Positions 58,457 to 59,878 of a DNA stretch of 64,000 bases are shown here, piece after piece. Made by a program: the position numbers and the translations under genes. The notes under the pieces were generated by a model, which made no database searches, was not told the DNA's origin, and saw only the letters and a program-made list of their open reading frames with translations. The stretch's first letter is position 1. Each line of letters starts with the position of its first letter. Origin of the DNA: Promethearchaeota archaeon (GTDB lineage: Archaea; Asgardarchaeota; Lokiarchaeia; Sigyniarchaeales; SOKP01); assembly GCA_019058245.1 (NCBI GenBank), contig JAHPZJ010000028.1, forward strand, positions 1 to 64,000. The letters run 5' to 3'.

Positions 58457-59878
58457 TCAAATTTCAATTGGATTATAATTTTCTGTTAATTCTTTACCAC
58501 GTTCAATATAAAAGAATTTGGCATGTTTTGGGTTAAGTTTTTGCTTTAATATCTCAAGAGCTTTTAATCCTTTCGGAAATTCATCACAAATAAAGAAATC
58601 TACACTAGCATATCCATGTTCTGGCCAAGTATGAAGAGCAGCATGGCTAGTTTCTAATATTGCTACCACACTATAACCAAATGGATGGTAAATATGATTA
58701 TAGATATCGATAATAGTCAATTCTGCAGAATTGAGTGATTCTAAAAATGCTTGAAATATGAATTTATTATCCATAAGTAGATCTTTAGATTTAAATCGCA
58801 TTTCTCCCGTGAAATGATATCCAATGGGGCGAAAAGTTAAATCTCTTCCATTTTTAAGTTCAGAAGTGTAGAGAGGTTGTGATTCGTATTTATAACTTAA
58901 TTGTGTATTTGTAGCCATTACTGATTGTAAATAATAAAGATGGCTAAATTGCCCTATAATACTGGCACCTTTGTAGTGGTTAAAATTAGGAAGCATCTCT
59001 TTAAGAATAAATCCATGATCTAATATTGATAATTGTAAATTTAAAGTATCATTAGGAGGTTTATTTCCAAAACATAGAAAACATTTCTTTCCAATGATAG
59101 GGTATAATGTTCCATTAATATTAATGTATGATTTAAGTACTTCTCTAGCTCTCTTTAAGAATAAACGTAATCCCTCATTTGTATAAGGAGGATCCATTAT
59201 AACAACATCATAATTATTTTGAATATCTTTAGGACTTGGATTCTTTAAATCGTGGTGAACAACATTAAAATTTTTTAATGATTTATGTAAAATAACATTG
59301 GAAAGAAAATCTAAAATTCGCTCATCGACGTCTAAAACAGTGATCTCTTTTGCTAATCCGGTTAAAGCAACTGCAATCGAAGTGGCGTCATCATCACCAA
59401 GAAAAATTATTTTTCTTCCTTCAATTTCACCTTTTTTAATTAAATAAAAAGTTCGTTTTAAAACCGTCATTAAATTTGCATGCGATTGATCAAGAGCATA
59501 TTCTGCTTTTGGTCGTTTCTTTAGATGCGTTTCTATCTGCTTTAGATACAAAAATTCATCTGGTATTTCATCTAAATCAAAATTAATTTGATTAGGAAAA
59601 GGATCATAATCAAATGTTAAATTTAAATTCTTCATTACCCATTTTTTTCCTTTCTCCCCGAGAAAAGTTTTATCAGCAATTAAACCAGCCTTTACTAACT
59701 CCCCTCTAACAGCCGCAAGAGTAGGAATTGCAATTCCAGTTTTTTGAGACACTTTTTTATTTTTAAGAGTAGGAAAACGATACATAGTTAAAAGTATTGA
59801 TCTAATTCCTTCGATACCCTCATCTAAATGTGCTTTATTAGCTATATTTATAAGTAGTTCTTCCGTTTCAGAATTCAT
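58457..59878 (-). CDS. Branched-chain polyamine synthase (BpsA/DUF43) fused to C-terminal pyruvoyl S-adenosylmethionine decarboxylase
   Basis: RP...LDQ, FLGDDDATS, DVDERIL, DPPYT..GL.LFL.RA; C-terminal GYSVVAILETSHAALHTWPEHGYASVDFFIC. Confidence 0.85.
   Translation of the reverse strand: MNSETEELLINIANKAHLDEGIEGIRSILLTMYRFPTLKNKKVSQKTGIAIPTLAAVRGELVKAGLIADKTFLGEKGKKWVMKNLNLTFDYDPFPNQINFDLDEIPDEFLYLKQIETHLKKRPKAEYALDQSHANLMTVLKRTFYLIKKGEIEGRKIIFLGDDDATSIAVALTGLAKEITVLDVDERILDFLSNVILHKSLKNFNVVHHDLKNPSPKDIQNNYDVVIMDPPYTNEGLRLFLKRAREVLKSYININGTLYPIIGKKCFLCFGNKPPNDTLNLQLSILDHGFILKEMLPNFNHYKGASIIGQFSHLYYLQSVMATNTQLSYKYESQPLYTSELKNGRDLTFRPIGYHFTGEMRFKSKDLLMDNKFIFQAFLESLNSAELTIIDIYNHIYHPFGYSVVAILETSHAALHTWPEHGYASVDFFICDEFPKGLKALEILKQKLNPKHAKFFYIERGKELTENYNPIEI

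Follow-up and report, generated by a model that had tools for sequence, protein, structure and literature searches.

Can one polypeptide of an Asgard archaeon both make decarboxylated S-adenosylmethionine (dcSAM) and spend it on the synthesis of polyamines, and if so, on which ones? The question is raised by an open reading frame (ORF) in contig JAHPZJ010000028.1 of a Promethearchaeota archaeon (assembly GCA_019058245.1), whose first 64,000 nucleotides are referred to here as the window. An initial annotation, made from these letters alone, took the ORF for a branched-chain polyamine synthase (BpsA) continued in frame by a pyruvoyl-dependent S-adenosylmethionine decarboxylase (AdoMetDC or SpeD). 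The evidence discussed below indicates that the ORF probably encodes a bifunctional enzyme of dcSAM-dependent amine aminopropylation, and that the BpsA-SpeD fusion is genuine, occurs repeatedly among both archaea and bacteria, and has apparently not been described before. The transferase half is a member of the BpsA_C family, but the label "branched-chain polyamine synthase" is unsupported for it.

The fusion ORF and its proposed mechanism

The reference for the transferase half is BpsA of Thermococcus kodakarensis (Tk-BpsA, TK1691; EC 2.5.1.128; PDB 5xnc/5xnf/5xnh), with its homologs from Thermus thermophilus (Tth-BpsA, 6j27) and Pyrococcus furiosus (2qm3), with which the fusion shares the BpsA_C family and the two-domain fold. 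The reference for the decarboxylase half is the class 1b AdoMetDC of Thermotoga maritima (TM0655; 1tlu/1vr7/3iwb), a class that includes the Aquifex aeolicus (2iii) and Bacillus subtilis (TIGR03330) types. The following features can be placed against them (aa, amino acid; pLDDT, predicted local distance difference test):

58457..59878 (-): whole fusion ORF (P0001), 473 aa plus stop, uninterrupted from an ATG start, carrying the two Pfam domains in frame
59564..59878 (-): N-terminal helical, winged-helix-like domain, aa 1-105, homologous to the Tk-BpsA N-domain (profile alignment to 5xnc)
58859..59563 (-): BpsA_C Rossmann-type aminopropyltransferase domain, aa 106-340 (Pfam PF01861; Foldseek to 5xnc/5xnf/6j27/2qm3)
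59387..59398 (-): GDDD motif, aa 161-164, positioning the aminopropyl group of dcSAM (Tk G157-D160; role as in PMC12979288)
59183..59194 (-): DPPY motif, aa 229-232, with Asp229 equivalent to Tk-BpsA Asp225
58832..58858 (-): flexible inter-domain linker, aa 341-349, low confidence reaching back to about aa 321 (pLDDT)
58460..58831 (-): class 1b AdoMetDC domain (SpeD/SpeH-type), aa 350-473 (PF02675, TIGR03330, 1TLU)
58649-58651 (-): Thr410 codon, residue -1 to Ser411
58646..58648 (-): Ser411 codon, predicted autoprocessing site and pyruvoyl precursor (T. maritima Ser63)
58631..58633 (-): His416 codon, within H-T-W-P-E (T. maritima His68)
58586..58588 (-): Cys431 codon (T. maritima Cys83, the catalytic proton donor)
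58460..58648 (-): predicted alpha chain, aa 411-473, 63 aa with N-terminal pyruvoyl (from the class 1b mechanism, PMC10407285, and the 1TLU alignment)

Both halves are recognized by profile and by fold, with scores well beyond what chance would give. BpsA_C (PF01861, DUF43-type) matches aa 113-318 in Pfam (4e-43; 147.9 bits, cut-off 27, and 148.2 bits when the genome was searched), and AdoMet_dc (PF02675) matches aa 355-461 along the whole of its profile (positions 1-107/107; 1.3e-25, 90.2 bits against a cut-off of 25). The C-terminal domain also passes the NCBIfam equivalog TIGR03330 (SAM_DCase_Bsu) with 91.4 bits versus a cut-off of 75.65; PF01564, the spermidine/spermine synthase family, gives 12.2 bits on the fusion, under its cut-off. 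An AlphaFold2 model from a 56-sequence alignment (mean pLDDT 87.4) consists of two well-folded modules with a disordered stretch between them, where pLDDT is 47-66 across blocks 301-350 and below 50 at aa 342-349. In Foldseek, aa 1 to ~350 retrieve Tk-BpsA, Tth-BpsA and the P. furiosus homolog (2qm3, 5xnf, 5xnc, 6j27) with probability 1.00 over ~345-380 columns, the high global root mean square deviation (rmsd) to these structures being due to a different domain orientation in the model, and the last ~115 aa retrieve 1TLU (target TM-score 0.86, rmsd 1.8 A). The N-domain, whose helices 3-120 are modelled at pLDDT ~90 and which carries a weak HTH_24 match (Pfam, aa 26-67), aligns by profile to 5xnc from profile position 5 (chain residue 21). 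Since the N-domain as well as the Rossmann domain is homologous to Tk-BpsA, the transferase half is judged complete on this homology; Met1 is near-invariant among homologs, and the BpsA_C domain closes with a boundary motif, h-Y-T-x-E, which reads L336-Y-T-S-E340 here.

Against T. maritima AdoMetDC (1TLU), the C-domain aligns without a gap over its full length (112 residues, 4e-16), with Ser63, His68 and Cys83 matched and Glu62 alone among these replaced, by Thr; the cleavage site reads E409-T410-S411-H412. Thus, the in-frame fusion of a complete BpsA-like enzyme with a complete pyruvoyl AdoMetDC-type domain, as initially proposed, is borne out by Pfam, NCBIfam and Foldseek on a single 473-aa ORF. 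The GDDD, DPPY and SH..HTWPE motifs and the catalytic Cys lie where that proposal had put them (161-164, 229-232, S411-H412 with H416, and C431), and so do the predicted cleavage Ser at 58646-58648 and the Thr before it.

These features suggest a sequence of events in which the SpeD domain would cleave itself between Thr410 and Ser411, turning Ser411 into the pyruvoyl group. The 63-aa alpha chain would stay bound non-covalently, and the beta chain (aa 350-410) would remain covalently joined to the BpsA part (aa 1-349) through a flexible linker of ~25 residues, giving a chain of 410 aa; the initial expectation that the beta chain stays on BpsA after cleavage thereby agrees with the class 1b mechanism, on which it depends. 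The pyruvoyl enzyme would then decarboxylate S-adenosylmethionine to dcSAM, and the BpsA-family domain (GDDD, DPPY, FNxY) would move the aminopropyl group from dcSAM to an amine acceptor, with release of methylthioadenosine. Such a fusion would fix a 1:1 stoichiometry and keep the production of dcSAM, a dead-end metabolite, beside its consumer.

The C-domain resembles class 1b AdoMetDC in its Ser63/His68/Cys83 equivalents, in an HTWPE motif with the AdoMetDC-specific Pro and in the predicted length of its alpha chain, but differs in its -1 residue and in not being free-standing, its beta chain being carried on a 349-aa transferase. Fusions of AdoMetDC with an aminopropyltransferase are known from Ca. 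Pelagibacter, a delta-proteobacterium and Ca. Krumholzibacteria; they are experimentally bifunctional, and animal spermine synthase derives from fusions of this kind (PMC11107197, PMC12803844). Like them, the Asgard protein is predicted to make and spend dcSAM in one polypeptide by means of a class 1b SpeD. However, in the characterized fusions an N-terminal SpeD precedes a PF01564 transferase of the SpeE/spermine-synthase type, whereas the Asgard protein has the reverse order, as the initial annotation correctly noted, and its BpsA_C domain is unrelated to PF01564 in sequence. The characterized transferases of the two kinds also differ in mechanism, ping-pong for BpsA_C versus an SN2 reaction in a ternary complex for the SpeE type.

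Distribution, recurrence and dispensability

The host genome is a 3.09-Mb assembly in 31 contigs, 76% complete and with ~30% GC. An origin of the fusion as an assembly artefact or frameshift, which the initial annotation had allowed for, is ruled out, as dozens of independently assembled genomes, single-contig ones among them, carry it uninterrupted. A word-indexed search returned 293 homologs, the best 120 of which are all 471-482 aa long with both domains, the named members among these 120 being Promethearchaeota/Lokiarchaeota and other Asgard metagenome-assembled genomes. Across a phylum survey of 400 genomes, the full-length fusion occurs in ~65 of the 134 genomes of the host family, f1 (genera g1, 42/53; g12, 22/42; g4, 1/1), in 20/22 genomes of family f16 at only 32-36% identity, and in one genome of family f31. 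In other families the BpsA-like gene stands alone and encodes 380-425 aa; f18 has, 44 bp upstream of this gene, a separate speD, an order opposite to that of the fusion. Family f21 has a canonical speD-speE pair, and the Heimdall-side families have the classical speD-speE pair in place of the fusion.

An exhaustive search of 1.84 billion representatives yielded 4647 family members. Among the best 150 clusters at 50% identity, which were inspected, 30 contain a SpeD domain, ~27 in the BpsA-N/SpeD-C order and two as SpeD-N/BpsA-C. Named carriers are Odinarchaeota, Hodarchaeales, Vagococcus fluvialis (109 cluster members), Enterococcus spp., Lachnospiraceae and Thermoflexus hugenholtzii, and every named fusion member is labelled "adenosylmethionine decarboxylase" at NCBI, an automatic annotation that on its own hides the transferase half. 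With several phyla represented, the architecture is common, and the rarity initially ascribed to it does not hold; that it is uncharacterized apparently does. Literature searches on BpsA with fusion, SpeD and Asgard found no paper on the architecture, which is mentioned neither in a review of branched-chain polyamines (BCPAs; PMC12979288) nor in the study of SpeD neofunctionalization (PMC10407285).

In a FastTree phylogeny of the BpsA domain (131 rows, many of them compositionally odd; midpoint-rooted), the Asgard fusions all fall in one supported clade (97*), along with a few unfused or degraded members, and the other fusions are placed in a Firmicutes clade, an "N|SN" group and the SpeD-N form, making four places in total. 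This suggests that the fusion arose more than once, the quick tree giving no exact count. A 478-aa representative within the Asgard clade (P0128) has a degraded SpeD domain (no Ser-His motif, "LISLQAWPE", profile E=1e-3) and no GDDD, and may be an inactivated relic of the fusion architecture.

Five f1 genomes that are 94-100% complete, four of them of the host genus, contain neither an AdoMet_dc nor a BpsA_C domain; credible SpeE was also not found in these five, and the four same-genus genomes do have PdaD, the arginine decarboxylase. As both domains are absent together from near-complete relatives, the module is accessory and dispensable and is lost as a unit. This dispensability argues against the fusion being the obligatory source of spermidine for hypusination of aIF5A in the lineage. 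Together with the repeated fusion in at least three or four separate clades of the BpsA tree and the gene adjacency in f18, the joint absence lends support to a functional coupling of the two halves.

The host is of interest in itself: as initially remarked, it is not among the thermophiles in which BpsA has been studied, being an Asgard archaeon of low GC. Asgard archaea are the closest prokaryotic relatives of eukaryotes, and how they make polyamines has yet to be established. Most of the Loki-type genomes examined have no AdoMetDC other than the fusion and no other candidate aminopropyltransferase, and the contrast with the speD-speE pair of the Heimdall side bears on the origin of the eukaryotic polyamine pathway. 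Additionally, the repeated joining of the two domains in Asgard archaea, in Firmicutes such as the cultivable mesophile V. fluvialis and in Thermoflexus argues strongly, on comparative grounds, for the use of dcSAM by the large, uncharacterized part of BpsA_C that comes mostly from non-thermophiles. Vagococcus and Enterococcus offer tractable systems for identification of the product.

The substrate of the decarboxylase half

SpeD homologs have repeatedly turned into arginine or ornithine decarboxylases (PMC10407285), which makes the substrate of the SpeD half a real question. The Ser63, His68 and Cys83 equivalents are common to all SpeD forms; true AdoMetDCs without exception have a Pro that is not conserved in the arginine decarboxylases termed SpeDA; and Gln, Thr, Phe and Tyr are diagnostic for the ornithine decarboxylases (ODCs) termed SpeDC (PMC10407285). 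The SpeDC domains read Q-L-I-E-T-S-L-x-S-G-H-F...Y-x-D (PMC10407285, Fig. S5; marker positions were taken from the text of this figure, not from the WebLogo figure), and the C-domain of the window protein reads A-I-L-E-T-S-H-A-A-L-H-T-W-P-E...S-V-D. It thus has one of the four SpeDC markers, the Thr at -1, with Ala, Trp and Ser at the other three, and keeps the SH, the Trp and the Pro. Ser411, His412, His416, Trp418, Pro419, Glu420 and Cys431 are invariant in 45 fused sequences of 33-88% identity, and Thr410 is invariant in all 41 f1 fusions (41/41); elsewhere, residue -1 is Ser in the f31 form and the canonical Glu (E|SH) in the f16, Odin, Hodarchaeales and bacterial forms. Since validated SpeDC domains with the E-T|S context self-cleave (PMC10407285), Thr at -1 should be no obstacle to processing.

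Genome content bears on the same question. PdaD is encoded in 37/39 genomes of the host genus at >=90% completeness, and the genus also encodes agmatinase, adjoining deoxyhypusine synthase (DHS); in the window's genome, contig C31 has the order arginyl-tRNA synthetase, agmatinase, DHS (L026:5555-9149). PdaD and pyridoxal phosphate (PLP)-dependent decarboxylases were not found in the window's own 76%-complete assembly, an absence that was rejected as biologically meaningful and ascribed to an assembly gap, given the better genomes of the genus that have them. In five relatives that are 97-100% complete and encode SpeE (G204, G209, G210, G218, G249), the sole AdoMet_dc domain lies inside the fusion ORF, so that SpeE there must draw its dcSAM from the fusion. 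A "second match" in the SpeE-containing genomes, at first taken for a second SpeD, turned out to be another, divergent BpsA_C paralog immediately upstream of speE. The pair of this paralog and SpeE occurs in about ten f1 genomes; in G209 (L030:2734-4736 (-)) 3 bp separate the paralog (364 aa, 51.8 bits) from the SpeE gene downstream of it, and a haloacid dehalogenase (HAD) hydrolase precedes the paralog. On this gene content, the pair would have to rely on the fusion for dcSAM.

An alternative is that the C-domain is a neofunctionalized SpeD, an arginine or ornithine decarboxylase of the SpeDA or SpeDC kind, and that the protein couples the formation of a diamine or agmatine to the transferase without any dcSAM. 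The E-T|S context shared with validated SpeDC ODCs and the invariance of Thr410 in the family fit this idea, as do the several substrate switches among SpeD homologs (PMC10407285) and a separate SpeDC-like ORF in another Asgard genome (G067), which indicates that such enzymes exist in these archaea. The same context is found in the double-pyruvoyl SpeD-SpeDC fusions, in which SpeD modules are likewise fused within polyamine pathways; their partner, however, is a second decarboxylase rather than a transferase, and the Gln, Phe and Tyr that mark SpeDC are absent from the Asgard protein. Moreover, the C-domain scores above the AdoMetDC equivalog cut-off, the genus already has PdaD and agmatinase, sister fusions of f16, Odin, Hodarchaeales and Firmicutes have the canonical E|SH, and both the BpsA half and the SpeE of the five relatives named above would be left with no donor. 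We therefore regard a switch of substrate as very improbable. AdoMetDC activity of the C-terminal domain, by contrast, is rated as highly likely on account of the equivalog score, the marker residues, the PdaD of the genus and the sole AdoMet_dc domain beside SpeE.

Two unfused SpeD forms were observed in the survey. The standalone SpeD of f18 (L010:3480-3863 (-) in G082; L019:1305-1685 (+) in G081; 117 bits in Pfam), directly upstream of the bpsA-like gene, reads K-E-T-H-I-S-L-H-T-W-P-E, with Thr at the position where every other SpeD has the pyruvoyl-forming Ser; it would form an alpha-ketobutyryl cofactor or else fail to process. The SpeDC-like ORF of G067 (L023:1705-2079 (-); a weak SpeD match of 41 bits), which adjoins a DUF3326 protein (L023:466-1701 (-)), has three of the four SpeDC markers (Q...L-T-S...Y-x-N) and is a candidate pyruvoyl ODC; the same genome carries the fusion along with two SpeE genes in tandem.

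The transferase half and its acceptor

In characterized BpsA, GDDD contains the essential Asp159/Asp160, the acceptor is activated by Asp225, Glu259, Tyr290 and Tyr316, and acidic residues clustered in a flexible C-terminus (Glu339, Asp342-Glu345) serve as the carrier of the aminopropyl group in a ping-pong mechanism (PMC12979288). GDDD, DPPY and FNxY are invariant across the 45 fused sequences, and DPPY is found in 52/52 BpsA-containing rows. Tk Asp225 and Tyr290 correspond to Asp229 and Tyr302 (FNxY), both conserved, and dcSAM is presumed to be the shared donor. Tk Glu259, in contrast, corresponds to a Pro within a conserved NKPP segment. The sequence alignment ends at Tk residue 290, with Tyr316 and the acidic tail beyond the alignable region, and the carrier cluster has no counterpart: YTSE is followed by a weakly acidic linker (3 acidic residues in the 34 of aa 319-352) and then by SpeD.

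The boundary motif h-Y-T-x-(E/D) is present in 150/165 family members, and a single conserved acidic position is left (E/D in 70% of members). In 27 standalone proteins the chain ends at this motif, in 70 a CxxC tail of ~55 aa comes after it, and in the fusions SpeD does, so that SpeD takes up a C-terminal position that varies across the family and that coincides exactly with the place of the carrier tail in Tk-BpsA. The Cys-rich tail (CxxC ... GCPxCG), seen in 70/101 standalone members (e.g., L010:2303-3463, L011:1534-2805, P0135, P0162, P0197), is probably a zinc ribbon.

Is the protein, then, a true branched-chain polyamine synthase of the Tk type, which would convert spermidine to N4-aminopropylspermidine and N4-bis(aminopropyl)spermidine with dcSAM supplied in cis? 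Tk-BpsA and Tth-BpsA are its best PDB matches in both sequence and fold, the equivalents of GDDD, Asp225 (DPP) and Tyr290 (FNxY) are kept, and in the genomes where SpeE stands beside the second BpsA_C paralog the arrangement resembles that of Thermococcus. Yet Tk-BpsA is only ~22% identical to the fusion, with >150 other 50%-identity clusters closer to it, and Glu259 and the carrier cluster are missing. The substrate is a further difficulty. Credible SpeE was not found in most f1 genomes with the fusion, where matches at E>1e-9 are generic methyltransferases, and a ~441-aa PLP decarboxylase near pdaD was rejected as a carboxyspermidine decarboxylase, as it adjoins diaminopimelate epimerase and is LysA-like. 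Spermidine, the substrate of the Tk-type enzyme, is therefore left with no identified source in most fusion genomes, as far as SpeE and the PLP decarboxylase are concerned (the carboxyspermidine dehydrogenase, CASDH/Sacchrp_dh, itself was not searched). A 2026 review, moreover, places BCPAs in thermophiles and makes no mention of Asgard archaea (PMC12979288). A Tk-type activity is accordingly considered improbable, and "branched-chain polyamine synthase" is the part of the initial annotation that does not stand.

A polyamine cluster around the fusion of G209, suggested by a 380-aa PLP decarboxylase 3 kb away, is unsupported, an ABC transporter and unrelated genes lying between them. In G180 (L024:230-3133), two tandem DHS paralogs (333 and 330 aa) adjoin pdaD in divergent orientation; that they are SpeY-type enzymes making homospermidine is speculation.

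Among possible acceptors, agmatine could come from the encoded PdaD and putrescine from the encoded agmatinase, and one of these is our tentative first choice, held with slightly less than even confidence. A tri-amine made or imported otherwise, leading to branched or longer polyamines, is a rather unlikely acceptor, and some other compound an unlikely one. A further alternative is that the transferase half uses a non-polyamine acceptor, such as a lipid head group, a protein or an amine on RNA, in which case the fusion would not be a polyamine synthase at all. This idea is prompted by a same-strand cluster in f16 and f17 of myo-inositol-1-phosphate synthase, a UbiA prenyltransferase, bpsA(-speD) and a CTP_transf_1 cytidylyltransferase, genes of archaeal phospholipid synthesis whose synteny was confirmed in three f16 genomes and one f17 genome (L006:2272-6465 in G067, f16; L021:1468-4729 in G079, f17; L007; L008). 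It is also in keeping with a winged-helix-like N-domain and, in standalone relatives, a CxxC tail that are not obviously needed for small-amine chemistry, with the dispensability of the module in close relatives, and with BCPAs reported from T. kodakarensis membrane fractions (PMC12175538). The synteny, however, is absent from the window's own family and was seen in two related families only, and all characterized family members are polyamine aminopropyltransferases. A non-polyamine acceptor thus seems extremely improbable, and the lipid-gene synteny is either chance or a hint of a membrane-related role.

Bifunctional, dcSAM-dependent amine aminopropylation therefore has to be weighed against several points on the other side. 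The missing Glu259 and acidic carrier tail mean that the chemistry of the BpsA half may differ from that of the characterized enzyme, and the -1 Thr, being an ODC-clade marker, could signal a shifted substrate preference. In the fusion model, the predicted TM-score (pTM) is 0.69 and the linker is disordered, which limits what it says of inter-domain geometry and oligomeric state. The fusion holds the sole AdoMet_dc domain of the window's genome, but with this assembly 76% complete, sole-copy claims rest on better-assembled relatives. In family f13, where all genomes (31/31) have a BpsA-like gene, one single-contig, 93%-complete genome (G015; L013) has this gene and no AdoMet_dc domain was found genome-wide, so that reliance on dcSAM from the same cell cannot hold for the whole family. 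Finally, the literature searches gave no biochemical data on any member of the architecture.

Bifunctional aminopropylation can also be taken a step further, to a self-contained accessory polyamine synthase unlike both known aminopropyltransferase classes, in which, the acidic carrier tail of Tk-BpsA having been lost, the tethered, self-cleaved SpeD would act as a lid and pass dcSAM straight on to the GDDD motif for the aminopropylation of agmatine, putrescine or an unconventional acceptor, the last being hinted at by the lipid-gene synteny of f16 and f17. We consider this extension doubtful. If true, it would be the only dcSAM-dependent route in most Loki-type archaea, unrelated to the eukaryotic pathway of SpeE and class 2 AdoMetDC.

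In the window, where the lipid-gene synteny is absent, the fusion has as neighbors a ferredoxin-nitroreductase, a 2-oxoacid_dh-like acyltransferase and a small GTPase. Neighboring genes at 55094-56523 (-), 61074-61604 (-) and 62881-63999 (+) encode an ArsR-type helix-turn-helix protein overlapped by a protein with an ARPP-1 domain, a small GTPase of the Ras/Roc-like kind, and PEMT/ICMT-like methyltransferases in tandem; none of them is polyamine-related.

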